55,178 bases of DNA from Pseudomonadota bacterium (GTDB lineage: Bacteria > Pseudomonadota > Alphaproteobacteria > SP197), in contig JAQCLG010000001.1 of the NCBI GenBank assembly GCA_027592745.1, positions 1 to 55,178 of the forward strand, written 5' to 3'. Position numbers and translations under genes: made by a program. How positions within the stretch are numbered: position 1 is the first letter of the stretch; each line of letters opens with the position of its first letter. This document shows positions 37,502-55,178 of the stretch, piece after piece. The notes below the pieces were generated by a model. The model saw only the letters and a list, made by a program, of their open reading frames with translations, was not told the DNA's origin and searched no databases.

Positions 37502-39469
37502 ATGAACGACCTTTTCGACACCCCCTCCAACGGCAAATCGAGCTACACCGCCAAGGACATCGAGGTCCTGGAGGGCCTGGAGCCTGTCCGCCGACGGCCT
37601 GCCATGTACATCGGCGGCACCGACGAGGGCGGCCTGCACCACCTCTTCGCCGAGGTCCTGGACAACGCCATGGACGAGGCCGTGGCGGGCCATGCCAGCC
37701 GCATCGAGGTCGAGATCGCCGCCGACGGCACCGTTACCGTGGCCGACAACGGGCGCGGCATCCCGACCGACCCGCACCCGAAATACAAGAAACTCTCGGC
37801 GCTGGAGGTCATCCTCACGACGCTGCATTCGGGCGGCAAGTTCTCCGGCAAGGTCTATGCGACCTCCGGCGGCCTGCACGGCGTCGGCGTCAGCGTCGTC
37901 AACGCGCTTTCGGACAAGCTGACGGTGGAGGTCGCGCGCGACAAGCGGCTGTGGCGCCAGAGCTACAGCCGGGGCAAGCCCACGACCAAGCTGCAGGACG
38001 CCGGCCAGGTCGCCAACCGGCGCGGCACCACGATCAGCTTCCATCCCGACCCCGAGATCTTCGGCCAGAGCGCGCGCATGCGCCCTGCCCGCCTGTTCCG
38101 CATGACGCGTTCCAAGGCCTATCTCTACCGGGGCGTGGAGATCCGCTGGCGCTGCGCCGAGGAATTGCTGAAGGACGCGGGCGAGACACCAACCGAGGCG
38201 GTCTTCCACTTCCCCGGCGGTCTGGGCGACTTCCTGGCCGCGACCCTGGAGAAACGGCCCACGGCAACGCCCAAGCCCTTCTTGGGTACCGCAGGCCTGG
38301 GCGACGAGGTCGGCAAGGTGGAATGGGCGATCGCCTGGCCGCTCGACGGCGAGGGCTTTTCCTCGACCTACTGCAACACGGTGCCCACGCCCGAGGGCGG
38401 CACCCACGAGGCAGGCATGCGCGCGGCCCTGACCAAGGGGCTGCGCGCCTACGGCGAGCGCGTCGGCAACAAGAAGGCCGACAAGATCACCGGCGAGGAC
38501 GTCGCGGGTGGCGCCGGTATCCTGCTTTCGGTCTTCATCCGTGACCCGCAGTTCCAGGGGCAAACCAAGGAAAAACTTGTCAATACCGACGTTCAGCGTC
38601 AGGTCGAACAGGCCCTGCGCGACCATGTCGACCACTTCCTGACCGGCGACCCCGAGGGCGCCAACATGCTGCTCGAGCTGACCCTGGAGAAGGTCGAGGA
38701 GCGGCAGCGGCGCAAGGCCGAGAAGGACATCAAGCGCAAGGCGCCCGCCCGCCGGCTACGCCTGCCGGGCAAACTCGCCGACTGCACCCGTTCGGGCAGC
38801 AACGACACCGAGATCTTCCTGGTCGAGGGCGACAGCGCCGGCGGCTCGGCCAAGCAGGCGCGCGACCGCGAGACCCAGGCCGTGCTGCCCCTGCGCGGCA
38901 AGATCCTCAACGTCGCCAGCGCCTCGGACGACAAGAAACACGGCAACCAGGAGATCAAGGACCTGCTGCAGGCGCTGGGCTGCGGCACCGGCAAGAACTA
39001 CCGCGAGGAGGATCTGCGCTACGACCGCGTCGTCATCATGACCGACGCCGACGTCGACGGCGCCCATATCGCAGCATTGCTGATGACCTTCTTCTACCGC
39101 GAACTGCCCGGCCTGATCGCCGACGGCCACCTCTACCTGGCGGTGCCGCCGCTCTACCGCCTGAGCCGGGGTGGCGACGTCGCCTATGCCCAGGACGACG
39201 CCCACAAGGACCGCCTGATGAAAGAACGCTTCAACGGCAGCAGCAAGGTGGAAATCAGCCGTTTCAAGGGCTTGGGCGAAATGCCTGTGGCGCAACTCAA
39301 GGCCACGACCATGTCGCCCAGGAGCCGCCAGATGCTGCGCATCGAGATCCCCGAGGGCCAGGAACGCCACACCCACGTCCAGATCGAGAACCTGATGGGG
39401 CGCAAGCCCGAACTGCGCCTGAAGTTCATCCAGGACCACGCCACCGAGGTCGAGGAACTGGACGTCTAG
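37502..39469 (+). CDS. parE: DNA topoisomerase IV subunit B
   Basis: 655 aa, which is ParE length rather than GyrB. GHKL ATPase motifs, Toprim EGDSAGGSAKQARDR, and PLRGKILNV. Confidence 0.9.
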   Translation: MNDLFDTPSNGKSSYTAKDIEVLEGLEPVRRRPAMYIGGTDEGGLHHLFAEVLDNAMDEAVAGHASRIEVEIAADGTVTVADNGRGIPTDPHPKYKKLSALEVILTTLHSGGKFSGKVYATSGGLHGVGVSVVNALSDKLTVEVARDKRLWRQSYSRGKPTTKLQDAGQVANRRGTTISFHPDPEIFGQSARMRPARLFRMTRSKAYLYRGVEIRWRCAEELLKDAGETPTEAVFHFPGGLGDFLAATLEKRPTATPKPFLGTAGLGDEVGKVEWAIAWPLDGEGFSSTYCNTVPTPEGGTHEAGMRAALTKGLRAYGERVGNKKADKITGEDVAGGAGILLSVFIRDPQFQGQTKEKLVNTDVQRQVEQALRDHVDHFLTGDPEGANMLLELTLEKVEERQRRKAEKDIKRKAPARRLRLPGKLADCTRSGSNDTEIFLVEGDSAGGSAKQARDRETQAVLPLRGKILNVASASDDKKHGNQEIKDLLQALGCGTGKNYREEDLRYDRVVIMTDADVDGAHIAALLMTFFYRELPGLIADGHLYLAVPPLYRLSRGGDVAYAQDDAHKDRLMKERFNGSSKVEISRFKGLGEMPVAQLKATTMSPRSRQMLRIEIPEGQERHTHVQIENLMGRKPELRLKFIQDHATEVEELDV

Positions 39470-39525
39470 AGTGGATCGTCCTCACGTGGAACCGCGCGCG
39501 GTTCCACGTGAGGACGAGAATCCGA
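39467..39525. repeat. REP-like nested palindrome, family member 1
   Basis: TAGAGTGGAT, then a perfect 20/20 palindrome CGTCCTCACGTGGAACCGCG|CGCGGTTCCACGTGAGGACG (39477-39516), then GAATCCG. Its first 3 nt are the parE TAG stop. Confidence 0.85.
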
Positions 39526-39561
39526 ACTATCTCAATAAGTTTGAGCAGGGACGGCCGCGGA

Positions 39562-40092
39562 TCACGGCTCCTGGGTGCACTGGGGATTGAACGACCTGAA
39601 GGCGCACCAGGTGGGATCCGGTTCGGGCGAGGGCTGGGTCTGGGCCGACGCCCCACCGCCGTCCTTCGTCGCCGGCGCGATGTAGGGCTGGAACTCGGGC
39701 GATCCCACCACGCCGTCTATGCCTGCCACCAGTTCGCGCAGGTCCTGCGTGATCTCCAGGCCGCAGACCCGGGAACAGATGCTCATCTCGTTGTCCCAGC
39801 CGCTGTTGAGCGCGACGCGCATATGGCCGCTCATCGCTTCGGCCAGGTCCCGGTCATAGGCGTTCTCGATGATGGCGAAATAGACACTCATCAGCCAGTC
39901 GGGGTCCCCCGGCACGCAGTCGCACAGGATCGTGTAGCCCAGGGGTCTGCCCATGTCGCCGGCTTCGGGGCGCTCCTGCGCGCGCGGCGTGGCCGTGGTT
40001 GCAAGCAGCAGGAACCCCGCAGCAAACAGGAACCTGCCGACCGCCTTGGCGGGTGGCAATCCTGCCGCAAGACATCCTGGAGGTGCACCCAT
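39562..40092 (-). CDS. secreted 6-Cys protein, paralog a (C-terminal WCAFRSFNPQC)
   Basis: ATG at 40092; the ORF could also start at TTG 40119. Signal-like segment FLFAAGFLLLATTATPRAQ. Confidence 0.65.
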   Translation of the reverse strand: MGAPPGCLAAGLPPAKAVGRFLFAAGFLLLATTATPRAQERPEAGDMGRPLGYTILCDCVPGDPDWLMSVYFAIIENAYDRDLAEAMSGHMRVALNSGWDNEMSICSRVCGLEITQDLRELVAGIDGVVGSPEFQPYIAPATKDGGGASAQTQPSPEPDPTWCAFRSFNPQCTQEP

Positions 40093-40193
40093 CGGCTTTC
40101 CGCTTCTAAGAAGATTCAATAAAAAAACAATTACCCAATAATAACACGGTATTATCTAGATTTTATCACCTTTTACAGAAGGCCAATGCACCT

Positions 40194-40996
40194 TCATTCC
40201 GCGCCGGGCTTGCGGCAATCCGGCCGCGAGGGGCTGGCCCGGCAGATGGAGGTCGACCAGTTGTCGCCCGACCCCGCTGTCACATAGAGCGATTCGATGC
40301 CGCCGCCGGAGGAGGTATCGGCCTCTGCAGCGGGGGGCTGGTAGGCGGCCTCGACGGACTGGGCGGCAACGGTCTCGGCCTCCACCACCTCCTCCGGCTC
40401 CGCGGGCGCCGGCGCAACCGTTTCGGCCTGGGCTGGATCGGCGCCGTCCGCGGTTCCGGCGGCTTCCAGGGCCTCGGCATCGGCGGCGGGCTCAATTGCG
40501 ACGGCGACCGGCACCTCGTCTTCGGCCGCCTCGGGCGCGGCGACGCCGGCGGCAGCCTCGACGGGCACGGTGGCTATCTCCCCGCCGGCGGCAACGACAT
40601 CGTCCGCCACCGGTTCATCGGCCGGCGCCGGTCCCAGGAGCGCGCGCAGGGCCGCACCGTCGACCACACCGCCATCGGCCCGAGCCAGGGTTATCTGCAG
40701 CTCACGGGTGACCGGCTGATCGCAGATCCGCTTGCACAGGCTCATGTTGCGGTCCCAGCCGTCCATGAGCGCACCCTCGAGCGGGGCTGCAGCGCATCGG
40801 CATAACCCTGGCCGTAGGCATCGGCGAAGGCTGCACGGTAGGTTTCGATGATCCAGGCCTTTTCCCCCACCACGCAGCCGCAGTTGACCGTATAGGCCAG
40901 CAGCTTGCCCATGTTTTCGGCATCGGGCCGTTCGGCGGCAAGGACCGGGCGGCTGCAGGCAAGCAGCAGCAGGAGAGCGACAGCAAGGCGCATCAT
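40194..40996 (-). pseudogene. secreted Cys-motif protein, paralog b, with a 1-nt frameshift and an acidic linker
   Basis: ATG at 40996 in an ATGA overlap with the paralog c stop. The frame changes at the G4 run 40783-40786 (C4 on the coding strand). Restoring one C gives ...ADALQPPLEGALMDGWDRNMSLCKRIC, which is collinear with paralog a. Confidence 0.6.
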
Positions 40997-41469
40997 GGCG
41001 AGGTCCGGCATTGCGGATGGAAGGGCCTGAAGGCGCACCAGGAAGGAAGCGGGCTGGAAGCCGGAGCCTTGTCCTCCCGGGGCAGGCTGTAACCCGCCCC
41101 GTACCGGGTCAGAAAGTCGTCGTCGGGTTCTGCTTCGATCATCGCCAGGACCTCGCCCAGATAGAGCGTGTAGTCGTTGACGCAGACGTAACCCGAACAG
41201 ACGCTTGCGGTGTTGCGGTAGAAACCGTCCATGGTCGGGCGCATGTAGCCGGCGGCGGTGTCGGCATAATCCGGGCCGGATTCCTCCACCATCATCGCGT
41301 AAAAGGCGACCTGCTGGTGGTCCGATTCATAGGGCAGGCATTCGCACATCAGGACGAAGCCGAGGAACTCCCCAAGGCGCTGTGGACTGACCGATTCCTG
41401 GGCATGCGCGCCGGTCTCGGTCAGCACCAGAAGCAGCCCCAGGACGTTGCATCTGGCGGTCGTGCGCAT
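40993..41469 (-). CDS. secreted 6-Cys protein, paralog c (C-terminal WCAFRPFHPQC)
   Basis: First ATG at 41469 (MRTTARCNVLGLLLVLTETGAHA). The start is uncertain. Confidence 0.65.
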   Translation of the reverse strand: MRTTARCNVLGLLLVLTETGAHAQESVSPQRLGEFLGFVLMCECLPYESDHQQVAFYAMMVEESGPDYADTAAGYMRPTMDGFYRNTASVCSGYVCVNDYTLYLGEVLAMIEAEPDDDFLTRYGAGYSLPREDKAPASSPLPSWCAFRPFHPQCRTSP

Positions 41470-41568
41470 GCGGGGATTTTCACCGGGGTGGCGGGACAAG
41501 GCAAGAAGTCATGACGTCGCCCCTTCCTGCCCGTCCGGACGCCCCGATGGCGGTCCTGAACCGGCGTT

Positions 41569-42111
41569 TCAGCGGATCAGGGGCGAAAGGTCCCGGAAGG
41601 CGTCGGTGCCGGCCCGCTCCAGCCATTCGAACAGGACCATCTCGGCGTTGACGATCAGCGCCCCGTTCGCCCGCAGGCGGGCCAGGGCGAGTTCGCGGCT
41701 CTGGCCGGTCCGGCTGGACACCGCGTCGGCCACGATGGCGACGCCGTAACCCTCCCCCAGCAGGTCCAGTGCGGTCTGCAGCACGCAGACATGGGCCTCG
41801 ACCCCGGCGAGCACGAAGCAGTCGCGCCCCAGGTCCCGCAGCGCGGCGCGGGCGGGATCCTCGGCAAAGGCCGAAAACGCCAGCTTGTCGTGGCATTCCC
41901 GCGGCCTCAGGGCCTCGTCGAAGGGCGCCACCAGGGCGCCCAGCCCCCTGGGATACTGGCGTGTCGCCAGGACCGGCACGTCGAGACGGCGGGCGGCCTG
42001 GAGCAGGATGGCGCAACGTTCCACGACACCTGGCCCGCCCTCGATCGCGGGCATCAGCCGTTCCTGCAGGTCGATCAGGACGAGGGCGCTGCGGCGGGCT
42101 TCCATGCGCAT
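41569..42111 (-). CDS. isochorismatase-family hydrolase
   Basis: 180 aa with ALVLIDLQ and catalytic-Cys GVEAHVCVLQTALD motifs. Confidence 0.88.
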   Translation of the reverse strand: MRMEARRSALVLIDLQERLMPAIEGGPGVVERCAILLQAARRLDVPVLATRQYPRGLGALVAPFDEALRPRECHDKLAFSAFAEDPARAALRDLGRDCFVLAGVEAHVCVLQTALDLLGEGYGVAIVADAVSSRTGQSRELALARLRANGALIVNAEMVLFEWLERAGTDAFRDLSPLIR

Positions 42112-42225
42112 GGTTCGCGTTCCGGGCGGTTGGCGGGCGGACGGCCCCAGTCAACGCCCTTCGGACACTGCCTGTCGAGGCCCCTCCGGCGGGCTGCACA
42201 CAACGCCCCGTCATGCGCTCTTGCG

Positions 42226-42254
42226 TTGACTATGGCGTCTGCGGCGGGTATCAC
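42226..42254 (+). promoter_or_regulatory. possible sigma70 promoter for the DEAD-box helicase
   Basis: TTGACT (42226-42231), a 17-nt spacer, then TATCAC (42249-42254). This would leave a roughly 60-nt leader. Confidence 0.3.
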
Positions 42255-42315
42255 GCGCGCACATGAAAGAACACAAGGCACACCGGCGCCTGCCGCGCTG
42301 GAGCACACCCACCGA

Positions 42316-43929
<1,614 letters not shown>

Positions 43930-43956
43930 TCCCTCTCTGCGACAGGAGTGACGACC

Positions 43957-44730
43957 ATGGCCCGTGGCGCTGCGATCCGTGATGCCCTGAAGTCCGGCCG
44001 CAAGCTGCTTGGCGGCTGGGTCAACATGAACAGCCCGATCGCCACGGAAATCGTCGCGGGCGCCGGCTTCGACGTGATCATGATCGATCAGGAGCACGGT
44101 CCCGGAAACAACATGGACGCGATCCTGCAGCAGCAGGCGATCCGGGCTGGCGGCGACAGCGCCAGCCTCCTGCGCGTGCGCGACAACGATACCCAGCTCA
44201 TCAAGCAGGCGCTGGACACCGGCATCGACGGGCTGATGGTGCCCCTGGTGGAAACTGCCGAGGGCGCGGCCCGTGTCGCCGCCGCCTGCCGCTTCCCCCC
44301 GGTCGGCATCCGCGGCGTGGCGCCAGGCAATGTGCGCGCGGCGCGCTACGGCTACGACAAGGACGCCTTCGTCGCGGCCAAGGGCGGCGACGTCTTCGTC
44401 ATGAGCCAGGTCGAGAGCGAACTCACCGTCAGGAACCTGCGCGAGATCGGCACGGTCGACGGCATCGACATGCTGTTCATCGGCCGCAACGATCTGGCGA
44501 GCTCGATCGGCTGCCTGGCCGACCTCAACGCGCTGGCCTCCAGGGAACTGCGCGAGGAAGCCGAGCGCCTGATCAAGGAGAGCGGCCGATTCATGGGCGG
44601 CATTCCCGGCCCGGGCGACAGCGCCATGGACATGTTCGCGCGCGGCTACGACCTGGTCATCGCCGCGGCCGACCATGCCCTGTTGCGCGATGCCGCCGTG
44701 GCCCTGGTCAAGGCCCACGCCGACCGCTGA
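43957..44730 (+). CDS. HpcH/HpaI-family aldolase
   Basis: ATG at 43957 with AGGAG 8 nt upstream. IMIDQEHGPG motif. Confidence 0.8.
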   Translation: MARGAAIRDALKSGRKLLGGWVNMNSPIATEIVAGAGFDVIMIDQEHGPGNNMDAILQQQAIRAGGDSASLLRVRDNDTQLIKQALDTGIDGLMVPLVETAEGAARVAAACRFPPVGIRGVAPGNVRAARYGYDKDAFVAAKGGDVFVMSQVESELTVRNLREIGTVDGIDMLFIGRNDLASSIGCLADLNALASRELREEAERLIKESGRFMGGIPGPGDSAMDMFARGYDLVIAAADHALLRDAAVALVKAHADR

Positions 44731-44737
44731 GGCCACC

Positions 44738-45406
44738 ATGGCAGCCTTCGCACCGATCCTGAAGCGGGCGCAGAAGCGCACCGGCGGACAGGAGCGGCTG
44801 GAGGCCCAGCTTCCCTCGCCGCGCAGCGCCGCCGAACTGGCCGCCGTGCCCGACGACCGCTACCTCTCCCAGATGTCGCTGCGCATCTTCCGCGCCGGAT
44901 TGCGCCACGCCCTGGTCGATGCCCGCTGGCCAGCCTTCGAGGAGGCCTTCCACGGGTTCGCCCCCGGGCGCATCACCCTGATGAGCGACGAGGAGATGGA
45001 GGGCTGCATGGGCAACGCGGCGCTGATCCGCCACTGGGCCAAACTCGGGGCGATCCGCGACAATGCCGCGGCGATGCAGACGATCGCACGCGAACACGGC
45101 AGCTTCGGGCGCTGGCTGGCCGACTGGCCCGCAGAAGACACGGTCGGCTTGTGGACCGTGCTGGCCAGGAACTTCAGCCAGCTCGGCGGCAATTCCGGAC
45201 CCTATTTCCTGCGCATGGTCGGCAAGGACACCTTCGTTCTGACCGACGACGTCACCCGCGCCCTGATCGAGGCCGGCGTCATCGAGAAGAAGGCAACGGG
45301 CAAGGCCGACCTCACCAGGGTCCAGGTGGCCTTCAACGGCTGGGCGCGCGAAACCGGCCTGCCGCTCTGCCAGCTTTCGCGCATCCTTGCCTTCTCGGTG
45401 GACTGA
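44738..45406 (+). CDS. tag: DNA-3-methyladenine glycosylase I-like protein
   Basis: 222 aa. The YLSQMSLRIFRAGL ... GPYFLRMVG pattern resembles the Tag family. The symbol is tentative. Confidence 0.6.
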   Translation: MAAFAPILKRAQKRTGGQERLEAQLPSPRSAAELAAVPDDRYLSQMSLRIFRAGLRHALVDARWPAFEEAFHGFAPGRITLMSDEEMEGCMGNAALIRHWAKLGAIRDNAAAMQTIAREHGSFGRWLADWPAEDTVGLWTVLARNFSQLGGNSGPYFLRMVGKDTFVLTDDVTRALIEAGVIEKKATGKADLTRVQVAFNGWARETGLPLCQLSRILAFSVD

Positions 45407-46207: not shown

Positions 46208-46441
46208 CGTCTGTCTCCCTTCGGTAACCCCGCTACCCGCACGCGACGGGCCGGAGGTTTTGCGTCCCGCCGTTGCCGACGGTTTGCCGTTGTTGAGGAG
46301 CCTGCCACCCGGCCCCGCCGGGCGATGCTCCAACCCAGTCAGCATCCACGCACGCGCCCGGCCAGGCCAGCACGAAACGCGGCCTGCGTGACGGAGGTCA
46401 CGCGCTCCACGGCCCAACGTGGCGGCTGGCAGCGTCGCCCG

Positions 46442-46580
46442 CTCTACGTCAACAAGATAGAGCAAATTCACATCCTTCTGCGCAATCGCGAAGCGATTCC
46501 GCAGAAGGATGATTTGCTCTAAACGGATGGGCCGCCTGAAACAAAGCGATCTTGTCGATGTAGAGCGGATTCACACGATC
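46442..46580. repeat. REP/BIME-like element, rearranged copy
   Basis: Module b (46442-46521) matches 48645-48724 at 79 of 80 positions. A 27-nt spacer follows. Then comes an inverted partial copy of the module a/b junction (ATCTTGTCGATGTAGAGCGGATTCACACGATC, 46549-46580). Confidence 0.85.
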
Positions 46581-46597: not shown

Positions 46598-47620
46598 ATG
46601 ACCTTCCGCGTCCTGATATCCGATCCCAAGATCGGCGACCTCAAGCTCTTCGAGGCTGCGGGCCGCAGCAACCTCGCCTTCGACCTGCGCGAGATCGGCA
46701 TGCCCGCGGACTTCCCCGATGACGTACTCGCGGCCTGCGATGCCTTCTGCATGTTCAACGTCAAGCCGATGGGCGCCGACGTCATCGACCGCATGACGCG
46801 CTGCCGGCTGCTGGTGCGCGCCGGCGTCGGCTTCGACAATGTCGACCTGGCCGCCGCCGCGCGCAACGGCATCCCTGTGGCCAATGTCCCCGACTACGGC
46901 ATCAACGAGGTCGCCGACCACGCGCTCGCCCTGATAATGACCTTCACCCGCGGCATCCGCTTCTACAGCACGCGCATGCAGGCGGGCCTGCCACAGGGCT
47001 GGGCCTGGGACAATGCCTTCAACCGGCGGACCTACCGGCGGCGGGTCGGCATCGTCGGCCTGGGACGCATCGGCAGCGCCTTCGCGCGCCGCTGCCAGGG
47101 CCTGGGCATGGAGGTGATCGCTTACGATCCCTACCTGCCGAGCGGCGCCGAACTGTCGCTCAACGTCACGCGTGTTGCTTCGCTCAAGGACCTGCTGGGC
47201 GCCTGCGACATCGTCAGCATGCACGTGCCGTTGACGCCCGAGACCGAACGCATGATCGACCGCGAGGCGATTGCGGCGATGCGCCCGGGCACCTTCCTGA
47301 TCAACACCTCGCGCGGCCCGGTGATCGACCTCGATGCCGCCTACGAAGGCATGAAAAACGGGCCGATCCAGTGCTTGGGCCTCGATGTCTTCCCCGTCGA
47401 ACCGGCCGATCCCGAACATCCCCTGATCAAGGCCTGGCTGGCGCGCGAGGCCTGGATCGACGATCGCCTGGTGCTGACACCCCATGCCGCGTTCTTCTCG
47501 CCCGACGCCGTGGTCGACATGCGCACCAACGCCATCCACCTGATCGCCGACTACCTGGAAGGCAAACCCCTGCGCAACTGGGTCAACGCCGACCTGCTCA
47601 GCCCCGACAGGCGGCGCTGA
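46598..47620 (+). CDS. D-isomer-specific 2-hydroxyacid dehydrogenase family protein
   Basis: 340 aa with NAD-binding motif GIVGLGRIGSAFARR. Confidence 0.88.
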   Translation: MTFRVLISDPKIGDLKLFEAAGRSNLAFDLREIGMPADFPDDVLAACDAFCMFNVKPMGADVIDRMTRCRLLVRAGVGFDNVDLAAAARNGIPVANVPDYGINEVADHALALIMTFTRGIRFYSTRMQAGLPQGWAWDNAFNRRTYRRRVGIVGLGRIGSAFARRCQGLGMEVIAYDPYLPSGAELSLNVTRVASLKDLLGACDIVSMHVPLTPETERMIDREAIAAMRPGTFLINTSRGPVIDLDAAYEGMKNGPIQCLGLDVFPVEPADPEHPLIKAWLAREAWIDDRLVLTPHAAFFSPDAVVDMRTNAIHLIADYLEGKPLRNWVNADLLSPDRRR

Positions 47621-47648: not shown

Positions 47649-47996
47649 ATGACCGTGACGATCTACCACAACCAGCGCTGCTCGAAGTCGCGCGAGACGC
47701 TGGCGCTGATCCGGGACAGGGGCATCGAGCCCGAGGTCGTGCTCTATCTCGAAACGCCGCCCGACGCCGCTACGCTCGACCACCTGCTGACGCTGATGGG
47801 CAAGGAACCGCGCGAGGTCATGCGGACCAAGGAAGCGCCCTACAAGGAACTGGGCCTGTCGGACCCCGGAACGACCCGCGAGGCCCTGATCGAGGCCATG
47901 GTCAACCATCCGGTGCTGATCGAGCGGCCGATCGTGGTGAACGGCAAGAAAGCCGCCATGGGGCGCCCGCCCGAGGCGATCCTGGCGATCCTGTAA
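47649..47996 (+). CDS. arsC: arsenate reductase (glutaredoxin-coupled ArsC/Spx family)
   Basis: 115 aa. IYHNQRCSKSR motif with the catalytic Cys. Confidence 0.85.
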   Translation: MTVTIYHNQRCSKSRETLALIRDRGIEPEVVLYLETPPDAATLDHLLTLMGKEPREVMRTKEAPYKELGLSDPGTTREALIEAMVNHPVLIERPIVVNGKKAAMGRPPEAILAIL

Positions 47997-48195
47997 TCCT
48001 GCCGCCGCCGTCGCAATTGCCGCTTTGCGCAGCGCAGCGAATCGCATAGCGTTCGCCCGCGTCCGCGGCGTGCCTGTTCCCGCGAACTCCTGACCTTTCC
48101 ACCAACGCCCGTCATGCCGGCTGCTGCCAGACGGCGGGCGTTCGTCGTCCACCATCCTGGTACGGCCGCGGGCCGTGCCCCGAGGAATCGCGCCC

Positions 48196-48588
48196 ATGAT
48201 GCTGATCCGCAATGTTGCCGGTCCCTCCGCCATCCACGGCACCGGCATCTTCGCCGCCGAGCCGGTCGCGGCCGGCACCGAGGTCTGGCGTTACCACCCG
48301 CAGTTCGACATCGTCGTCATGCGCCACTATGCCGACATGCTGCCGGCGGCCATGCAGGACTTCCTGAAGATGTACGCCTATCCGTCCGAACTGGTGGCCG
48401 GCAACCTGCTGCTGGACGGCGACAACGGCCGCTTCATGAATCACAGCGACACGCCCAACACGAGCAACACGGTCTGGATCTCCTATGCCTCGCGCGACAT
48501 CGCCGAGGGCGAGGAGATCACCTGCGACTACGGCGAATTCTACGCCGAGGGTGACTTCCACCTGATCGAGACGGAGACGCCTGCCTAG
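48196..48588 (+). CDS. SET-domain protein (putative lysine methyltransferase)
   Basis: ATG at 48196 with GAGGAA 8 nt upstream. GRFMNHS, PN and EEITCDYG motifs. The TAG stop lies inside the repeat. Confidence 0.8.
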   Translation: MMLIRNVAGPSAIHGTGIFAAEPVAAGTEVWRYHPQFDIVVMRHYADMLPAAMQDFLKMYAYPSELVAGNLLLDGDNGRFMNHSDTPNTSNTVWISYASRDIAEGEEITCDYGEFYAEGDFHLIETETPA

Positions 48589-48724
48589 AGCGGATCACGA
48601 TCACCCGGAACCGCTCAGCGGTTCCGGGTGATCGTGTGAATCCGCTCTACATCAACAAGATAGAGCAAATTCACATCCTTCTGCGCAATCGCGAAGCGAT
48701 TCCGCAGAAGGATGATTTGCTCTA
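48586..48724. repeat. composite REP/BIME-like element (module a plus module b)
   Basis: Module a (48586-48649): TAGAGCGGATCACGATCACCCGGAACCGC-tca-GCGGTTCCGGGTGATCGT-gtga-ATCCGCTCTA. Module b (48645-48724) contains a 27-bp interrupted hairpin, AGAGCAAAT...ATTTGCTCT. The element exactly fills the gap between two convergent stop codons. Confidence 0.9.
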
Positions 48725-49519
48725 GATATCCAGCTCGTAGAGCCGTCCGTAGCGGGGCAGCGCCTCCTTGATCCCGGCAAGGCGCAGCGCGTGCCATGCC
48801 ATGGCGTGGTTCGAGGAGGTGACAGGTTTGCCCAGTTCGGCCTCGACCTCGGCGGCGACCTGGGCCAGCCGCAGGCTGGTGCAGGAGACGAAGACGGCAT
48901 CGACATTGTCGCGCCGGCCGATCTCCAGCAGCGCCGTGCGGATGCTCGCCGGTGCGATGCAGGAAACCCGGTTGTCGTTCTCCTCGTTGAAGGAACCGAA
49001 GACGGGGACCTCGAAACCGCGCGCCTGGATGTAGTCGCGCATGAAGCGGTTGATGTCGTCGCGGTAGGGTGTGAGCACGCCGATACGCCTGGCACCCAAG
49101 GCGCGGAAGGCCGCGAAGGCGCCGGTGATCGGCGTCGTCACCCGGGCTTCCGGGCGGGCCTGACGAACCAGTTCGAAGACGCGCTCCTCGCCGATCACCA
49201 TGGAGGCCGAGGTGCAGCCGTAACAGACGACGTCGAGCGGCACGCCCGGCAGGATGAGATCGGCGGTGCCGGCGATCCGGCCTTCCATCGCCTTGAGCGT
49301 TTCGGGCGTGATCGAGGGGTCGTTGGCGATGCGCGCCTCGTAGAAGGCGACACCGGGCAGGTCGAGGATGGCGCGGAACTCGTGCTCGACCGTGTGGTCG
49401 CTGGCCAGGACGATGACGCCGATGCGCGCGCGGGCGGCAATGCCGCCGTCGAGCTCGAAGGGAAGGTGCGTGAGGTTGGTGAACGCCTCGCTTGCACCGT
49501 CCTGCTGCTGCTCTGCCAT
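48722..49519 (-). CDS. Asp/Glu/hydantoin-racemase superfamily protein (maleate-isomerase/arylmalonate-decarboxylase-like)
   Basis: 265 aa. Two Cys motifs, YGCTSAS and FVSCTSL. GGAGG RBS. Confidence 0.8.
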   Translation of the reverse strand: MAEQQQDGASEAFTNLTHLPFELDGGIAARARIGVIVLASDHTVEHEFRAILDLPGVAFYEARIANDPSITPETLKAMEGRIAGTADLILPGVPLDVVCYGCTSASMVIGEERVFELVRQARPEARVTTPITGAFAAFRALGARRIGVLTPYRDDINRFMRDYIQARGFEVPVFGSFNEENDNRVSCIAPASIRTALLEIGRRDNVDAVFVSCTSLRLAQVAAEVEAELGKPVTSSNHAMAWHALRLAGIKEALPRYGRLYELDI

Positions 49520-49585
49520 GCCCCCCTCCTCGCCCTGTCTGCGCAGTCTTGCCCCAAGTGGGTCCGGGGTCCAGCGGCCTGACGC

Positions 49586-50461
49586 TCAGGCGCCGCGGCG
49601 GCTGCGCTCGCGCAGGGAGATGTAGATGCCGCTCGTCACGATGATGCCGATGCCCAGCCAGCTCCAGCCATCGGGGAAGTTGTCGAACCAGAACAGGCCG
49701 ATGATCGTGGCCGCGACGATCTCGAAGTAGCCGAAGGGCGCCAGCAGCGAGGCCGAGACGTGGCCGTAGGCGCGGATCGTCATGTAATGGCCCGCGCCGG
49801 TCACCGCACCGATCGCGGCCAGCATCGCCCAGGTCGCCGGATCGGGCGTACGCCAGTCCAGGGCGACGAAACAGGAAAGCACCATGGCCGCGACGATGCC
49901 CTGGACGAAGATCGAGATCAGCGGGTCGGCCCGCGTCGCGATGCGCCGGGTGAGCACGATGTAGAAGGCAAAGGCGACGCTGCCGGCCAGAGAGAGCAGC
50001 GCACCGGTGTCGAGCGCGCCCAGCGACGGCTTGATGATGAAGAGCGTGCCGCAGAAGCCGACGATCACCGCCGACCAGCGCCGCCAGCCGGTGCGTTCGC
50101 CCAGCAGCCAGGGCGCCAGCGCAGTCACCAGGAAGGGATAGGCAAAGAAGATGGCGATGGCATCGGCCAGGGGAATGCGCGCGATCGCCATGAAGAACAG
50201 GAAGGTCGAGGTCATGTGCAGCAGGCTGCGCGCGACCTGGGCCCAGGGTTCGGGCGGGCGCAGCAGGCCAAGCCCATGGCGCCGCACGGCGAGCGGGGCC
50301 ACCAGCAGGGTCTGGAAGACGTAACGCGCCCAGACGATCTGGAGCACCGAGAAGCCGATGTCGGCCAGGTGCTTGGCAAAGCCGTCGCCCACCGAAAGGA
50401 TGGTGACCGCGGGCAGCAGAAGCATGAGGGCCGCGGCAAGCGGCGTGCGTGGAACGGCCAA
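49586..50461 (-). CDS. EamA/DMT family transporter
   Basis: 10-TM pattern. The start is uncertain. TTG at 50461 with GGAG 7 nt upstream is preferred; ATG at 50425 is the alternative. Confidence 0.7.
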   Translation of the reverse strand: MAVPRTPLAAALMLLLPAVTILSVGDGFAKHLADIGFSVLQIVWARYVFQTLLVAPLAVRRHGLGLLRPPEPWAQVARSLLHMTSTFLFFMAIARIPLADAIAIFFAYPFLVTALAPWLLGERTGWRRWSAVIVGFCGTLFIIKPSLGALDTGALLSLAGSVAFAFYIVLTRRIATRADPLISIFVQGIVAAMVLSCFVALDWRTPDPATWAMLAAIGAVTGAGHYMTIRAYGHVSASLLAPFGYFEIVAATIIGLFWFDNFPDGWSWLGIGIIVTSGIYISLRERSRRGA

Positions 50462-50606
50462 GATCTGGCTCCGGGTGGGCCTGTCGCTCCCATACACAGC
50501 CCCGCCCCGCACCGCCAGCGGCAAACGCCTCCCTTGTCCTGGATCAAGAGCATGGCAACGCCGGCCATGGCAGACTGAAGCTCTGCATGCGAATCGGGAG
50601 CACGCC

Positions 50607-52084
50607 ATGTTCGAATCCGCCGAACTGGGCCACCAGGTCGACAAGAAGACCTACGAGGCCGAGGAGCCGGAACTGCGCACCGCCCTGCTGGAGGCGCAGT
50701 TCGACCTCGCCCAGGCCAGGAAGTTTCCGGTCATCATCCTGGTCGGCGGCGTCGACGGTGCCGGCAAGGGTCCGGTCGTCAACGTGCTCAACGCCTGGAT
50801 GGACCCGCGCCTGATCGAGACCAACGGCATGGGCGCCCCCTCCGACGAGGAAGCCGACCGGCCCCCCATGTGGCGCTTCTAGCGCGCCCTGCCGCCGGCC
50901 AGCAAGATCGGCATCTTCTTCGGGTCCTGGTACACGCAGCCAATCGTCCGCCGTGTCTACGGCGAGACCCGCGACACCGACCTCGAGCGCAGCATCGAGG
51001 AGATCGAGCGCTTCGAGACGATGCTGGCCGCCGAAGGCGCGCTGATCCTGAAGTTCTGGTTCCACCTCTCCAAGAAGGCCCAGAAGAAGCGTCTGAAGGC
51101 CCTGGAAAACGACCCGGTCAACCGTTGGCGGGTGCAGGAAACCGACTGGGAGCGCTTCGAGATGTACGACCGCTTCCGCAAGGTCTCCGAACTGGCCCTG
51201 CGCCGGACCAGCAAGGGTCACGCGCCCTGGCACGTCATCGAGGGGGTCGACGAGCGCTTCCGCAACCTCACCGTCGGGCGCACCCTGCTTGCCGCGCTGC
51301 GCGAACGCCTGGACGGGACGCCCGAATCGCCGGCCGCGGCCGCCGCACCCCCGCCCCTGCCCAGTGTCGACGGACGCAATGTCGTGGGTGCCCTGGACCT
51401 GTCGCAGTCGCTTTCGAAGAAGGCCTACGAACGCCAGTTGCTCGAACTGCAGGAACGCCTCAACGGCCTCAGCCGGCACAAGCGGTTCCGCAAGCATGCC
51501 GTGGTCGCCGTCTTCGAAGGCAACGACGCGGCGGGCAAGGGCGGCGCCATCCGGCGCGTCACCGGCGCGCTCGACGCGCGTTTCTACCGCGTCGTGCCGG
51601 TCGCCCCCCGAGCGAGGAGGAGCGCCTGCACCCCTATCTCTGGCGTTTCTGGCGCCATATCCCAAGGCACGGCCACAACGTCATCTTCGACCGTTCCTGG
51701 TACGGCCGCGTCCTGGTGGAACGGGTCGAGGGGCTGAGCCCCGAGGACGACTGGATGCGGGCCTACGGCGAGATCAACGATTTCGAGGAGGAACTGGCCG
51801 GCCACGGCTGCATTCTCGCCAAGTTCTGGCTGGCGATCGACCGGGACGAACAGGAGGCCCGCTTCAAGGCGCGCGAGGACACCGGCTACAAGCGCTTCAA
51901 GCTGACCCAGGAGGACTGGCGCAACCGCGACAAGTGGGACCTCTACGTCCACGCCGTCAGCGACATGGTCGACCGCACCAGCACGACGATCGCGCCTTGG
52001 ACCCTGGTCGAGGCCAACGACAAGCATCACGCCCGCATCAAGGTGCTCGAGACGCTCTGTGATCGGATCGAGGCGCAGTTCTAG
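50607..52084 (+). pseudogene. two-domain polyphosphate kinase 2 (PAP-like), with an in-frame TAG and a 1-nt frameshift
   Basis: Domain 1 reads VGGVDGAGKG ... PPMWRF-TAG-RALPPASKIGIFFGSWY, with TAG at 50880-50882. Domain 2 reads EGNDAAGKGG ... VVPVAP, then shifts frame at the C6 run 51604-51609 to SEEERLHPYLWRFWRHIP...IFDRSWY. Confidence 0.75.
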
Positions 52085-52137
52085 AAGGACTCGCCCCACG
52101 CTCGCGTGCGTCGACCGGGCTGCCCATGCGCAAGTGT

Positions 52138-52175
52138 TAATGAGAATGATTTGCATTTGCAAATTACTCTCATTA
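52138..52175. promoter_or_regulatory. 38-bp AT-rich palindromic operator
   Basis: TAATGAGAATGATTTGCA-tt-TGCAAATTACTCTCATTA, with 16 of 18 arm positions symmetric. Lies 35 nt upstream of the ATG at 52210. Confidence 0.6.
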
Positions 52176-52209
52176 GGCTCCACTCCTCCGACGCAAGGAG
52201 CCAGTGCCC

Positions 52210-52722
52210 ATGTCCCCGCCACCGTTTCGTCCGGGTTATCCCGAGGAACTCGCCGTGCTCGATCTCGACACGGCAGAGACCTTCGTTCTTGCCACCACGC
52301 GCCTGTGGGCCGCGCCCCATCGCGACCCCTGGCATCCCCATCCCGACTGGCGCGGCGGCTTTCGCGCCGCCGGGGTCAATAGCGACGGCGCCCACGCCTT
52401 CGACACCCTGTTCTGGATCGTGGTTGCCGGCGGCCACCACGTGCTCGATGTGCGCTGCCCGCGCTGTACCCGCCTGGGCGCCGACGAGGCCTGGATGCTC
52501 CAGCTCACCGGTTACGCCCAGATGGGCCGCAGCGACCTGACGGAACTCGCCCTGGGCCACTGGCTGCCCGCCACGGCCGCGCGAGCCGCCGTGGTTCACG
52601 CCACGATCTTCGGCAGCGCCCTGGTTGCCGCCGGCCTCATGGTACCGCTGCACCGCCGCATGAGCCGGCCGGCAACGCGCCTGGCCAGCCCGACCCACGC
52701 CGCCCCCGCGGCGCTGCACTGA
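52210..52722 (+). CDS. hypothetical protein P1 (LDLDT and CPRC motifs)
   Basis: ATG at 52210 with AGGAG 9 nt upstream. No family recognised. Confidence 0.55.
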   Translation: MSPPPFRPGYPEELAVLDLDTAETFVLATTRLWAAPHRDPWHPHPDWRGGFRAAGVNSDGAHAFDTLFWIVVAGGHHVLDVRCPRCTRLGADEAWMLQLTGYAQMGRSDLTELALGHWLPATAARAAVVHATIFGSALVAAGLMVPLHRRMSRPATRLASPTHAAPAALH

Positions 52723-52743
52723 ACGGGCGGACAAGAACGGACC

Positions 52744-53305
52744 ATGACCTTTGTCTCCGTGCTGACTCAGCGCCGCGCCCTGCCGCCGCCACGCCGCTAG
52801 GGGCGGCTCAACCGCATCGACGTACTCCAGGCGATCCGCCACGTCGCGCTCGACCTCGATACCGAAGCCGTGGCGCAACGGCGTTTCGTCGCCATGCTGG
52901 GCGACGAGCGGGGAGCGGCCTGCTTCCACTCGCTGCTGGCGCTCGTGATGACCCTGTGCTGCCACGGCCGGCGGCCCTTCGTCGTCGGCCATCCGCGCAG
53001 CCCACTGCCCTCGGTCACCGAACGCCATGTCCTGGCCCTGCTGGCTGCCGCGCAGTCCGGTCATGGCGAGGAGGTCGACATCCGCCTCGTGACCCTGCTT
53101 GCCCGCACCCTGGCGCCAGGCTGCCGCCAGGGATCTCGCGGCCATCGCGCAGTACCTCTCCGGCGCGGGCGTGCCGCTGGCGGTGCCGCTCGATGCAGCG
53201 CCGCCGCGCTGCCGCAGCTGGGGCCGCCCCGGTCGGCCCCGGCCATCGGAGACCGACACGCTCGCACGCAATTCCAATCCCAACCAAAAGGAGATCTCGA
53301 CATGA
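52744..53305 (+). pseudogene. degraded paralog (P2) of the preceding gene
   Basis: Frame from ATG 52744 has TAG at 52798-52800, then ALDLDTEAV...CFHSLLALV...ERHVLALLAAAQSG, resembling P1. Similarity continues in the +1 frame from about 53099 (PWRQAAARDLAAIAQYLSGAGVPLAVPL). That frame ends at TGA 53303-53305, overlapping the peroxiredoxin ATG. Confidence 0.3.
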
Positions 53306-53835
53306 GCCAGCAGGAACGCAAAGCCGGCGACCGGGTGCCCGACGTGACCTTCCGCGTGCGCCGCAACGATGCCTTCCACGACGTCACCACGGCCGACCTG
53401 TTCGCGGGCAGGCGCGTGGCGCTGTTTGCCCTTCCCGGCGCCTTCATGCCGACCTGCTCGTCGACCCACCTGCCCGGCTTCATCGGCCATGCCGACAAGC
53501 TGCGCGCGGCGGGCATCGATGCGATCTACTGCCTGTCGGTCAACGATTCCTTCGTGATGAACGCCTGGGCCGCCGACCAGGGCGCGACCGAGGACAGTGT
53601 CGTCATGATCCCCGATGGCAGCGGCCATTTCAGCCGCGCCATGGGCATGCTGGTGAACAAGGACGACCTGGGTTTCGGCGACCGTTCGTGGCGCTACGCC
53701 ATGGTGGTGAACGACGGCGTGATCGAGCAGATCTGGAGCGAGGACCGCGACACGCCGGACGACCCCTTCGCCGTGTCGGATGCCGCGACCATGCTGGGCT
53801 GGCTCGAGGGGAGGAACCAGAAGCCGGCGGATTGA
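53302..53835 (+). CDS. peroxiredoxin (Prx5/PrxD-like, AhpC/TSA family)
   Basis: AAGGAGA RBS. Peroxidatic-Cys motif PGAFMPTCS. Confidence 0.88.
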   Translation: MSQQERKAGDRVPDVTFRVRRNDAFHDVTTADLFAGRRVALFALPGAFMPTCSSTHLPGFIGHADKLRAAGIDAIYCLSVNDSFVMNAWAADQGATEDSVVMIPDGSGHFSRAMGMLVNKDDLGFGDRSWRYAMVVNDGVIEQIWSEDRDTPDDPFAVSDAATMLGWLEGRNQKPAD

Positions 53836-53988
53836 CGGCGCCGGGAGAAACATCAGACTTTCGCCCATGGCACGTCCCAGGGAACACGGCATCCGCCTAA
53901 GCCGCGCCGGTCATCGCCCCGGTGAAGGACTTCTTCCGCCGGGTGCTCTCGGCAGGGCAGACTGCACCGGCCAACGGGAGACGCCTCC

Positions 53989-55104
53989 ATGAGTCAGGCT
54001 GACCTTGCCTTCCCCCTGATCGACGCTACGGGTTCGCCCTTCGAGCGCGGTCGCGACTACGGTCGCGGCGCGGCCGAGCGCATCGCGGTCTCGGTCGCGA
54101 TCTACGAGGAGCCCCTGGCCCGCCAGGGCCTGCCGTGGTCGACCGTGCGCGCCATCGCGGGGCGTTACCTGCCGCGCCTGGAAGCCTTTTCGGGCGATCT
54201 GACCGAGGAGATTCGCGGCATCGCGGCCGGCTGCGAACGGCCGGTCGAGGACATCGTGGCGCTGAACGCACGCACCGAACTGCTCTACGACAAGTCGCTG
54301 CGCGAGGGCCTCGACACCCTGCCGCCCGATGGCTGCACGGGCGCCATCGCCCTGCCCGGCACCACCGCCGACGGCCACATGCTGCACGGCCAGAACTGGG
54401 ACTGGCTCGATGCCTGCAAGGATTCCGCGGTGGTCGTGCGCATGACCTATCCCGACGGCATGCGCCTGCTGACCTTCGTCGAGGCCGGCATCCTGGCGCG
54501 CGCGGGCATGAACAGCCACGGCATCGCGGTCACCGGCAACTTTCTCAACACGCCCTCGCGCCCCGCCGAGGGTGCGGTGCCGATCCCGCTGGTGCGCCGG
54601 CGCGTGCTGGAATCGGCAACGCTGTTCGGGGCGGTGGGCGAGGTCCTGAACTCGCCCCGTTCGTTCTGCAACAACATGATGATCAGCGATGCCGCCGGCG
54701 AGGCGGTGGACCTGGAGACCACGCCCGAGGAGGCGTTCTGGGAACTGCCCGAACAGGGCATGCTGGTCCATTCCAACCATTTCCGCACCCAAGCGGCGCG
54801 GGCCCGCGTCAAGGACACGGGCCTGATGGCCTCGCCCGACTCGATCTACCGTGACCGCCGCGTCGAGGCCCACCTGCGCCAGCGCGCGGGGCAGGTCACC
54901 CAGGGCGACCTGCAGGCCGCCTTTGCCGACACCTATGGCGCACCGCGCGGCGTCTGCCGCTCACCCACGCCCGAGACCAACGAGCGGGCACCGACCTCCA
55001 CCGTCGCCTCGCTGATCATGGACACCACGGCCGGCCACATGTGGCTGGCACGTGCACCCTACGACCAGCCGGCCCGCTACAGCCGCTACGATCTCCACGG
55101 CTGA
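53989..55104 (+). CDS. peptidase C45 / acyl-CoA:6-APA acyltransferase-like protein
   Basis: 371 aa. Self-processing-type DGCTGA motif and GQNWDW. Confidence 0.75.
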   Translation: MSQADLAFPLIDATGSPFERGRDYGRGAAERIAVSVAIYEEPLARQGLPWSTVRAIAGRYLPRLEAFSGDLTEEIRGIAAGCERPVEDIVALNARTELLYDKSLREGLDTLPPDGCTGAIALPGTTADGHMLHGQNWDWLDACKDSAVVVRMTYPDGMRLLTFVEAGILARAGMNSHGIAVTGNFLNTPSRPAEGAVPIPLVRRRVLESATLFGAVGEVLNSPRSFCNNMMISDAAGEAVDLETTPEEAFWELPEQGMLVHSNHFRTQAARARVKDTGLMASPDSIYRDRRVEAHLRQRAGQVTQGDLQAAFADTYGAPRGVCRSPTPETNERAPTSTVASLIMDTTAGHMWLARAPYDQPARYSRYDLHG

Positions 55105-55120
55105 GGCAGACAGGGCCCGA

Positions 55121-55178
55121 TCTAGAGCGGATCACGATTAGCCGGAACCGCCGAGCGGTTCCGGCTAATCGTGTGAAT
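55121..55178. repeat. REP-like nested palindrome (module a), truncated by the window end
   Basis: TCTAGAGCGGATCACGATTAGCCGGAACCGC-cga-GCGGTTCCGGCTAATCGTGTGAAT. Same architecture as 48586-48649, with compensatory stem changes. Confidence 0.85.

Follow-up and report, generated by a model that had tools for sequence, protein, structure and literature searches.

Four loci in the window (the whole 55,178-nt stretch of DNA analysed here) carry nested palindromes whose stems differ in sequence between copies, which raises the question of what kind of repeat they are and what moves them. The original prediction was that they form a dispersed family of REP/BIME elements mobilised by a RAYT (TnpA-REP) transposase. 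All four loci were present, at approximately the coordinates given, and the existence of a dispersed nested-palindrome family was borne out, as further copies were identified throughout the genome (~110 unit loci, with ~35-45 composites). The mechanism was another matter. Our analyses indicated that the repeats are very probably (about 0.85) a non-autonomous DNA transposon (MITE) that is moved in trans by a DDE transposase of the IS630/Tc1-mariner family.

Architecture of the Repeats and Their Loci in the Window

The repeats contain two types of hairpin unit, A and B, each of 64 nt, with GGAACCGC as the core of A and AATCGC as the core of B, and with outer arms that contain GAACC (A) or GAATCG (B) from nt 23. 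In the composite these are arranged as A-CATCAACAAGA-B, in which CATCAACAAGA is an 11-nt linker, and the total of 139 nt represents a mobile unit of 135 bp (GAGCGGAT...ATTTGCTC) plus the duplicated TA. Unit B, which lacks the GGAACCGC core, reads TAGAGCAAAT-TCA-CATCCTTCTGCG-C-AATCGC-GAA-GCGATT-C-CGCAGAAGGATG-ATTTGCTCTA. A single architecture had been described for all four loci, but 46458-46521 and 48661-48724 are of this second type; likewise, the supposedly invariant core, GGAACCGC-(2-3 nt)-GCGGTTCC, was found at 39467-39529, 48586-48649 and 55123-55178 and not in the B units. The pairing of the arm TAGAG(C/T)GGAT with ATCCGCTCTA was confirmed in the sequence. At its outer ends the element has C-TAGAG, and GTAGAGCGG, with which the elements had been thought to begin on the other strand, is confined to the inner junction of unit A and the linker. 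Folding z-scores were -13.6 (RNA) and -15.2 (DNA), and the predicted RNA hairpins were very stable (-96.2 kcal/mol). Together with the ~110 unit loci and the covariation described below, these scores lie well outside what chance would give. The features identified in the window were as follows.

48586..48724, + strand: complete composite, putative MITE (TA + 135-bp element + TA); folds as two hairpins; metagenome contigs exist without 48585-48721
48586-48649, 48650-48660 and 48661-48724, + strand: unit A, linker CATCAACAAGA and unit B of that composite, from sequence
48586..48588, + strand: TAG formed by the duplicated TA and the first G of the element; stop codon of ORF 48175..48588 in the ORF list
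48722..48724, - strand: CTA (TAG on the - strand) formed by the last C of the element and the duplicated TA; stop codon of the convergent ORF 48722..49519 in the ORF list
39467..39529, + strand: single diverged A-type unit, 63 nt, with TA on both sides; empty site in the sister species G002
39530..39574, + strand: ~45 nt missing from the G002 empty site in the alignment; linker-like TCTCAATAAGT, then TTGAGCAGGG
46439..46521, + strand: truncated composite, from sequence; 8-nt A stub CCGCTCTA (46439-46446), linker CGTCAACAAGA (46447-46457), full unit B (46458-46521)
46550..46580, - strand: inverted fragment of a second copy, from sequence and a BLAST match; linker TCTTGTCGATG (46550-46560) and the first 20 nt of the bulge-bearing arm of unit A (46561-46580)
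55123..55178, + strand: unit A of another composite, from sequence; ends with the contig at nt 56 of 64

Composites identical in architecture to 48586..48724 number 14-18 genome-wide. The two convergent ORFs that this copy terminates were examined in a coding-likeness test (48175..48588, putatively encoding a SET-domain protein: 164 codons, GC3 0.93; 48722..49519: 287 codons, GC3 0.88). The unit at 39467..39529 is laid out as TAGAGTGGAT, a 19-bp stem, a GC loop, the returning stem, an AGA bulge and ATCCGAACTA, and the first TAG within it terminates a 668-aa ORF, 37463..39469 (677 codons, GC3 0.90 in the same test). The matching empty site in G002 reads gacgtcTAgaccc. Judging from a weak resemblance, the adjacent 39530..39574 probably represents what is left of the composite (linker and part of unit B) after decay or truncation.

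What remains at the 46.4 kb locus has been rearranged, with an inverted linker and A stub lying 28 nt beyond a full unit B. The truncated composite there matched 48642-48724 at 99% identity across 83 nt (family D1), and the inverted fragment, which is 97% complementary to 48630-48661 (inverted repeat I11), lies directly 5' of an ATG at 46598. The last unit begins 18 nt past the TGA stop of ORF 53989..55104 and shared 89% identity with 48585-48641, the changes in its stem being mirrored (family D14). Approximately 50 contig ends of the assembly stop inside the element, the end of the window included.

Target Site and Present-Day Polymorphism

Six comparisons of filled and empty sites, in same-genus genomes or sister species, were informative (L012/C133, L016/C59, L033/C67, L024/C134, L028/C34, and 39467 in the window versus G002 C316). 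In each, the empty site had a single TA and the filled site TA-element-TA. The bases flanking the TA varied among sites (T-TA-A, C-TA-A, C-TA-T), which indicates that the duplication is of 2 bp and not of 4. In metagenomes containing the same organism, a 4,381-nt X1 contig (3 mismatches) and an X2 contig joined 48584 directly to 48722. The 137 nt skipped in these contigs (48585-48721) equal the 135-bp element plus one TA, and an X5 contig spanned the filled junction of the same locus. These empty alleles show the insertion to be polymorphic today, and the family still moves in nature.

The base before the TA at the outer termini was C in 71 of 92 cases (77%) and T in 18 of 92, against backgrounds of 0.34 and 0.07, respectively. 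The target preference is thus for TA inside CTAG. IS630 is described as inserting at the TA within 5'-CTAG-3' with duplication of the TA (PMC2170065, and the title of Tenzen & Ohtsubo 1991 cited there). We propose that the 135-bp element moves by excision and reinsertion at a TA dinucleotide, with a preference for CTAG, and that the TA is duplicated when it inserts.

Gene Context

The copies are mostly at the 3' ends of genes, often between convergent genes, as the original prediction had it, and about one third of termini supply the TAG stop of a gene. The stop was supplied by the A end at 14 of 45 termini and by the B end at 16 of 47, such that orientation relative to genes is random. Because the element starts with G after the TA, each insertion would create a TAG at one boundary and a CTA at the opposite one, and a gene whose TAG or TAA stop codon receives the element at its TA would remain intact. 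We therefore consider that copies pile up at gene 3' ends, and often provide the stop codon, because insertions of this kind spare the gene.

Symmetry of the Stem Arms

The compensatory stem changes noted previously were genuine, including the CAC to TAG change mirrored by GTG to CTA between the 48.6 and 55.1 kb copies. Stem positions were 96% paired and the covariation score was 0.396, compared to 0.151 +/- 0.008 for shuffled sequences (0 of 500 shuffles reached it). The strict Watson-Crick symmetry extended even to a hypervariable mid-stem tetrad, the variants of which differ by transversions mirrored in both arms. Mismatches of the G.T type were no commoner than A.C, at 31 versus 28 in A units and 68 versus 109 in all units. 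The lack of G·U tolerance, together with the lack of strand bias, points to symmetry of the arms at the DNA level and not to RNA structure. Of the earlier suggestion that the hairpin is maintained at the DNA or RNA level, only the DNA half stood.

Hairpins are not known to be needed in classical IS630/Tc1-mariner transposition (PMC2170065), and as a result the known mechanism leaves the strict complementarity of the arms at non-conserved positions unexplained. The arms appear to be kept complementary by a process acting on DNA, which could be templated copying from arm to arm (gap repair or palindrome replication) or transposition that needs two equivalent binding sites. More tentatively, and we consider this rather unlikely, the element might not be just a passive pair of IS ends: one arm might be re-copied from the other in the life cycle of the element (through fold-back-primed synthesis or intra-palindrome template switching in transposition-linked gap repair), or the IS630 clade might recognise DNA extruded as a hairpin or cruciform. 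In both cases, the BIME-like double palindrome would have been reached convergently with a DDE transposase, and DNA secondary structure would be a working intermediate.

A Candidate Parental Clade of Insertion Sequences

The ends of the element, compared by sequence, matched the left end of a clade of ~1,050-bp IS630-family insertion sequences, at clade level only, through TAGAGC and GAAYCG at a fixed offset (~12 informative positions). The left ends of the clade read TA-GAGC…GAATCG, with GAATCG from nt 23, the same offset as that of the "invariant core" in the units. GAATC from nt 23 occurred in 37 of 42 left ends and in 0 of 42 right ends, and the flanks were C-TA in 36 of 42 and TA-G in 35 of 42. 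The transposase of the clade scored 226 bits on NF033545 (cut-off 100). Members were found in a genome of the same family (L152), in element-rich Pelagibius and in other genomes, with 42 complete copies in metagenomes.

The best full-arm match of a unit to an IS was 19 of 32 positions, and among the genomes and metagenome ISs compared none had ends closely matching the units, so that the exact parent was not found there. Nor was there an autonomous partner with near-identical ends: the only DDE_3 gene of the present genome, G000 (C159), has unrelated ends, G004 had a decayed copy only, and G001, G002, G008 and G011 had none, although absence from such fragmented metagenome bins is weak evidence. 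The gene for the transposase that moved the polymorphic copy may be on unbinned or unassembled DNA.

Based on these matches, we envisage the element as a pair of related fold-back modules of 60 bp (A and B) connected by the conserved 11-nt linker. One arm of each module would be the left terminal repeat of the clade (TA|GAGC at nt 1-6, GAAYCG from nt 23) and the other arm the complement of this left-end-like arm with a 3-nt TCA/TGA insertion. Under this proposal both outer ends of the composite would be left-end-like transposase binding sites in inverted orientation. We infer that the modules arose via fold-back copying of an IS left end, that the conserved positions are likely transposase contacts, and that the variable mid-stem tetrad would be an unconstrained spacer between two binding subsites.

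Alternative Explanations

The reading as REP/BIME-type elements or REPINs, spread by a RAYT Y1 HUH transposase acting on single-stranded hairpins, is suggested by the layout of two related palindromic units in opposite orientation on a short conserved linker, and by the GTAG present at the inner A-linker junction. We regard it as extremely improbable and have rejected it, since every informative site had a TA duplication (the six empty sites and the 137-nt population allele) and Y1/RAYT-type HUH transposition, as in the IS200/IS605 family, is not known to make a target-site duplication. The stems also vary between copies yet stay complementary, as drawn for E. coli REPs (PMC3333891 Fig. 1); however, a REP is defined as an imperfect palindrome of 20-40 nt that has GTAG conserved on the 5' side of its stem (PMC3333891), and the present units are 64 nt, compared to 30-40 nt for REPs in the same source, and belong to an element with C-TAGAG ends. 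A search for Y1_Tnp (PF01797) gave only a sub-threshold match of 20.5 bits beside ffh in G000 and nothing in the five closest element-bearing genomes. No RAYT gene scored above threshold in G000, G001, G002, G004, G008 or G011, and none flanked by the repeats was found among the genomes examined.

The hairpins might instead be kept as RNA structures, either 3'-end stabilisers of transcripts or terminators without T-tracts, with the covariation reflecting selection on the RNA fold. The predicted stability of the hairpins and their frequent position at gene 3' ends would fit, and transcripts of MITEs are known to affect mRNA processing (Correia elements with RNase III, ERIC elements with RNase E; PMC10969869). 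Against this are the mismatch counts and the presence of elements in both orientations with no bias in the gene-facing end, and the 3'-end location is accounted for by the TA/CTAG target and the tolerance of stop-codon insertions. Polymorphic copies show the same arm symmetry, and these are too young for host selection to have shaped it. The lack of T-tracts was confirmed, with no run of T/U after the hairpin of any copy, and Rfam 15 at the gathering threshold gave no match to the repeats, matching in the window only two tRNAs and a c-di-GMP riboswitch elsewhere. We consequently view selection on RNA as a very improbable cause, while secondary effects on mRNA are possible. Marginally less credible again is a MITE of another DDE family with a CTAG-like target, either IS5 (IS427 group, 2-4 bp duplication, GAG ends) or an IS1380-type element (4-bp CTAG duplication). 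The ends of the element do begin with GAG, like those of many IS5-family elements known from ISfinder, but the duplication is of 2 bp with variable neighbours, and all full-length elements found to combine TAGAGC ends and C-TA-G flanks with the GAATCG motif at nt 23 carry genes for IS630-family transposases (IS5-family transposases being outside the direct search).

Comparison with Known Elements

The IS630 reading places the repeats beside IS630 of Shigella sonnei, ISY100 and the rest of the IS630/Tc1-mariner family, along with the bacterial MITEs derived from it, for example the RUP element in Streptococcus pneumoniae. They share the TA duplication, the preference for TA in CTAG and the cut-and-paste behaviour, here inferred from the clean empty sites, and the candidate parental clade itself scores as an IS630-family transposase (NF033545). 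Like RUP, they are small non-coding derivatives with IS ends; unlike other IS630-derived MITEs they are not a simple left end plus right end but two fold-back modules, each a palindromic copy of a left-end-like sequence, on a conserved linker, each outer terminus resembles a left end, and their hosts are marine Rhodospirillales-type alphaproteobacteria. Correia elements (CREE/NEMIS) of Neisseria are likewise abundant intergenic MITEs that duplicate a TA, form stable hairpins from long inverted repeats, show insertion polymorphism among strains and may affect neighbouring transcripts. Those, however, form one long hairpin from two terminal repeats, where the present element has two separate internal ones, and Correia elements are described as carrying promoters and an IHF site (PMC10969869). 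With REP/BIME elements and REPINs the family shares paired opposite palindromes on a short linker, variable complementary stems, extragenic position and high copy number, but the mechanism differs, and the likeness is one of convergent form and not of membership.

Taken together, the constant length, the lack of coding capacity, the ~110 unit loci in both orientations, the mutual identity of 95-100% among copies and the insertion polymorphism, both between species and within populations, are those of a MITE. We conclude that the repeats form a new MITE family, derived from IS630-type elements, in marine alphaproteobacteria, and a well-documented fresh instance of an already known class of element; the literature searched contained no description of such elements in marine Rhodospirillales-type alphaproteobacteria.

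Implications

These findings correct a tempting misannotation, as not all REP look-alikes are RAYT-driven, and the TA duplication at empty sites offers a simple diagnostic to separate REP/RAYT systems from such MITEs. The range of these MITEs takes in more than one family of marine alphaproteobacteria, several in all (Kiloniellaceae, Pelagibius, Denitrobaculum, Thalassobaculaceae and relatives). It is chiefly this element that breaks the contigs of these metagenome bins, and as it provides the stop codon of about one third of neighbouring genes, it must not be trimmed by gene callers or repeat maskers. The filled and empty alleles can serve directly as strain markers in metagenomes. Lastly, the puzzle of arm symmetry could make the templated maintenance of palindromes in bacteria testable.

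Structure and distribution of the repeat units

Genome-wide cataloguing in the assembly (3.85 Mb in 263 contigs, 68% G+C, with the window as contig C25) located approximately 110 unit loci, so the expectation of more copies outside the window proved correct. The units are of two types, A and B, both beginning with TAGAG, ending with CTCTA and measuring exactly 64 nt. The original prediction had described four window loci of a single architecture. The loci exist, but they are built from both unit types:

39467-39529: diverged single A-type unit
46439-46580: rearranged remnant (A stub, linker, full B, then inverted linker and A stub)
48586-48724: complete composite
55123-55178: unit A truncated at the contig end, the window itself ending inside the unit

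The two types share a geometry of 10-bp outer stem, one-sided 3-nt bulge, 19-bp inner stem and 3-nt loop, but the side that bulges differs, which places B in inverted orientation with respect to A:

Unit A: TAGAGCGGAT / CACGATCACCCGGAACCGC / TCA loop / GCGGTTCCGGGTGATCGTG / TGA bulge / ATCCGCTCTA
Unit B: TAGAGCAAAT / TCA bulge / CATCCTTCTGCG-C-AATCGC / GAA loop / GCGATT-C-CGCAGAAGGATG / ATTTGCTCTA

The composite has the order A-CATCAACARGA-B and is 139 nt long. There are 14 internal composites in the genome by strict match (18 by a looser pattern) and about 29 more half-composites at contig ends, with bits of the linker visible at the edge. Three 64-nt A/B hybrids (C36:22205, C56:17824 and C183:20762) look like deletion derivatives between similar unit ends. 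At C116:19086-19285 one element has inserted at the end of another: a complete composite lies directly against a diverged A-type unit, and the two have their terminal TA in common.

A metagenome contig (run X2) from a related strain skips 70 nt at window 46444-46515, roughly the linker and most of B, so strains differ in the structure of the remnant locus. About 140 nt from this remnant is a c-di-GMP-I-GGC riboswitch aptamer (RF03167, 46219-46297, minus strand; 61.5 bits, gathering score 59). Elsewhere in the window, contigs of runs X1 and X2 run from position 53520 back to 50726 through 35 additional letters (TTCGCCCATGGATTACGGTCCATCCTCCGACTGGA), which reflects rearrangement of the allele or else a paralogous region. 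A 45-nt direct repeat (39577-39621 and 41008-41052, 80% identical, spacing 1,431 nt) lies within the 3' parts of tandem minus-strand paralogues of a six-cysteine family.

Both other species of the genus also carry the composite, as does, at 71-76% identity and at least 21 copies per genome, a sister genus; it was absent from 33 other relatives searched. By an exact pattern scan, more than 116 stretches contain the 64-nt unit; their sources are Kiloniellaceae, Pelagibius, Denitrobaculum, Thalassobaculaceae, Thalassospiraceae and Rhodospirillales-type marine bins, across which the arrangement with a 10-12-nt linker is conserved. On a Thalassobaculaceae chromosome (OZ001190.1, locus L078, 4389-4724) three consecutive 64-nt units have a regular 72-nt spacing, an array form not seen in the genome studied here. 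No Rfam family for the element was matched in the window, distant BLAST of a plasmid collection gave no match, and no description of the element in the host taxa was found in the literature searched.

Insertion and target site

The flanks of different copies are unrelated right up to TAGAG and CTCTA. When insertions of the two same-genus genomes (G001 and G002) were taken and their flanks located in this genome, five clean empty sites were obtained, each with a single TA where the relative carries TA-GAGC…GCTC-TA:

C133: gcgcTAggac
C59: ccTTAacg
C67: ggccTAacg
C134: gcacTAtcg
C34: acccTAacc

The window copy at 39.5 kb provides the converse case, as G002 is empty there and reads gacgtcTAgaccc, with a native TAG stop. 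The bases adjoining the TA vary, and the target duplication is therefore 2 bp; the same variation rules out a 4-bp duplication of the IS1380 type. Among 92 outer termini, C stands before the TA in 71 and T in 18, against 0.34 and 0.07 for these bases in the genome. Target choice is thus strongly biased, the target being Y-TA-R and mostly CTAG.

Public metagenome assemblies contain contigs of the same organism in which the 48.6 kb site is empty. An X1 contig (4,381 nt, 3 mismatches) and an X2 contig both join 48584 to 48722, skipping 137 nt that correspond to the 135-bp element plus one TA, while a contig from run X5 crosses the filled junction. The presence of both alleles indicates that the element moved recently enough for the insertion to be polymorphic. 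All runs with this locus are DNA metagenomes.

Origin of the element

Duplication of TA and exclusive insertion at TA are hallmarks of the IS630/Tc1-mariner group (PMC2170065), and a preference of IS630 for the TA in 5'-CTAG-3' is indicated in the same source, including by the title of a Tenzen and Ohtsubo study that it cites. The original prediction had instead attributed the repeats to REP sequences mobilised by a RAYT transposase. The layout of the composite is indeed like that of BIMEs, a likeness that we regard as convergence of form. We rejected the REP/RAYT reading because the units are 64 nt, the mobile ends are C-TAGAG, the elements make target duplications, and no RAYT gene scored above threshold: the only PF01797 match in this genome was a sub-threshold one of 20.5 bits beside ffh, and the five nearest genomes that carry the element (G001, G002, G004, G008 and G011) gave no match. 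We consider it highly probable (approximately 0.85) that the repeats are IS630-derived MITEs.

Several candidates for the parent transposase were discarded. The sole DDE_3 gene of this genome (C159, about 19.1-20.3 kb, locus L014) is within an IS630-family IS with two overlapping ORFs, HTH then DDE_3, an overlap that suggests a frameshift. The ends of this copy, TA|TACCAGCGGCC…, are unrelated to the MITE. Other element-bearing close relatives had no DDE_3 gene or a decayed one, and the remnant in G004 lacked matching ends. Pairs of units 1.4-1.5 kb apart at loci L041 and L088 proved to be separate insertions around ordinary genes (dapB, a sigma factor), not full-length ISs. Searching about 115 element-bearing loci for IS630 transposases by tblastn gave no match, and a search for orphan-end pairs returned noise only.

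Full-length ISs with related ends were found further afield. At locus L152 of a same-family genome, a C-TA-G site is occupied by a 1,053-bp IS whose ends are TAGAGCGGTTTCAC… and TAGAGCCGATTCAAC…, and ISs of 1,049-1,057 bp with TAGAGC…GCTCTA ends occur in several element-rich genomes. One Pelagibius chromosome has nine DDE_3 matches, and the 340-aa product of the IS at locus L180 scored 225.8 bits against the NCBIfam IS630 model (cut-off 100). A profile of the clade's transposases recovered 42 complete IS copies from metagenome contigs, flanked by C-TA in 36/42 and TA-G in 35/42. Their left-end consensus is TAGAGCg.g.Tg.g.tt.g.ctGAATCG...ggGg.ttcc; 37 of the 42 left ends, and none of the 42 right ends, have GAATC starting at nt 23. 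The outer arms of unit A (TAGAGCGGATCACGATCACCCGGAACCGC, GAACC from nt 23) and unit B (TAGAGCAAATCATCCTTCTGCGGAATCGC, GAATCG from nt 23) are in exact register with this left end, and thus what had been described as an invariant core is the subterminal left-end motif of the clade. By this comparison, each unit is a folded-back left-end-like sequence, and the composite is left-end-like at both termini. As the best IS match to a unit arm was 19/32 positions, the parent is identified at clade level only. The autonomous partner would be an IS of about 1.05 kb with ends TAGAGCGGATCACGATC… and …GATGATTTGCTCTA and an IS630-family gene between them.

Covariation of the stems

Compensatory stem changes, as originally proposed, are genuine. 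In a set of 44 distinct A units that spans this genome and other taxa, standard pairs made up 96.1% of cells and two-sided changes affected 16 pairs (178 cells). The covariation score was 0.396 versus 0.151 +/- 0.008 in shuffled sets, with none of 500 shuffles reaching it, and at most 0.108 with partners slid. Variation clusters in columns 15-24 and 31-32 and, within the genome, lies mainly in a mid-stem tetrad (CACC, CAGC, GACC, TGGC, TGGT, TAGC, TTGC and others), whose variants are usually mirrored in the opposite arm.

The hairpin had been thought to be maintained as either DNA or RNA. An RNA hairpin under selection is expected to be G.U-tolerant and strand-specific. G.T pairs were no commoner than A.C mismatches (31 versus 28 in A units, 68 versus 109 in all units), and the element end facing the stop-supplied gene was without bias (A 14/45, B 16/47). 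The constraint is therefore at the DNA level, and the RNA alternative is not upheld. Comparison of C112/L011, C156/L020 and the 39.5 kb locus found no orthologous copies common to species that could bear on maintenance of stems in place; at C156/L020 the two copies face opposite ways, and G002 lacks the 39.5 kb copy.

A bipartite DNA-binding domain is typical of IS630 family transposases. We infer that the conserved positions 1-14 and 23-30 are the contacts of such a domain and that the tetrad is a free spacer; the arms would stay complementary either through templated copying from one arm of the palindrome to the other or through a need for two equivalent sites. Known IS630/mariner chemistry has no need for a hairpin (PMC2170065) and does not by itself account for the strict arm symmetry.

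Location at gene ends

Copies do lie at gene 3' ends, as had been noted from the sequence: at 30 of 92 true outer termini the terminal TAG is the stop codon of a long, high-GC3 ORF. Each insertion yields a TAG on one strand per end, on opposite strands at the two ends, and because every insertion creates these terminal TAGs, a stop is kept when the targeted TA belongs to a TAG or TAA stop codon. At 48.6 kb convergent genes both terminate in the element's two terminal TAGs, and at 39.5 kb the target was the TAG of a 668-aa gene itself. C112:34384-34463 and L011:1501-1639 of G002 occupy the same TA after …gaaggccggyttc, with flanks 98% identical and elements of different subfamilies, which suggests either that a hot-spot stop codon was hit independently in each species or that replacement took place. 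Stop-preserving insertion therefore explains the 3'-end location without a host function. An IS630-derived MITE is an ordinary kind of element; the family itself is new and well characterised, and its double fold-back build is unusual.
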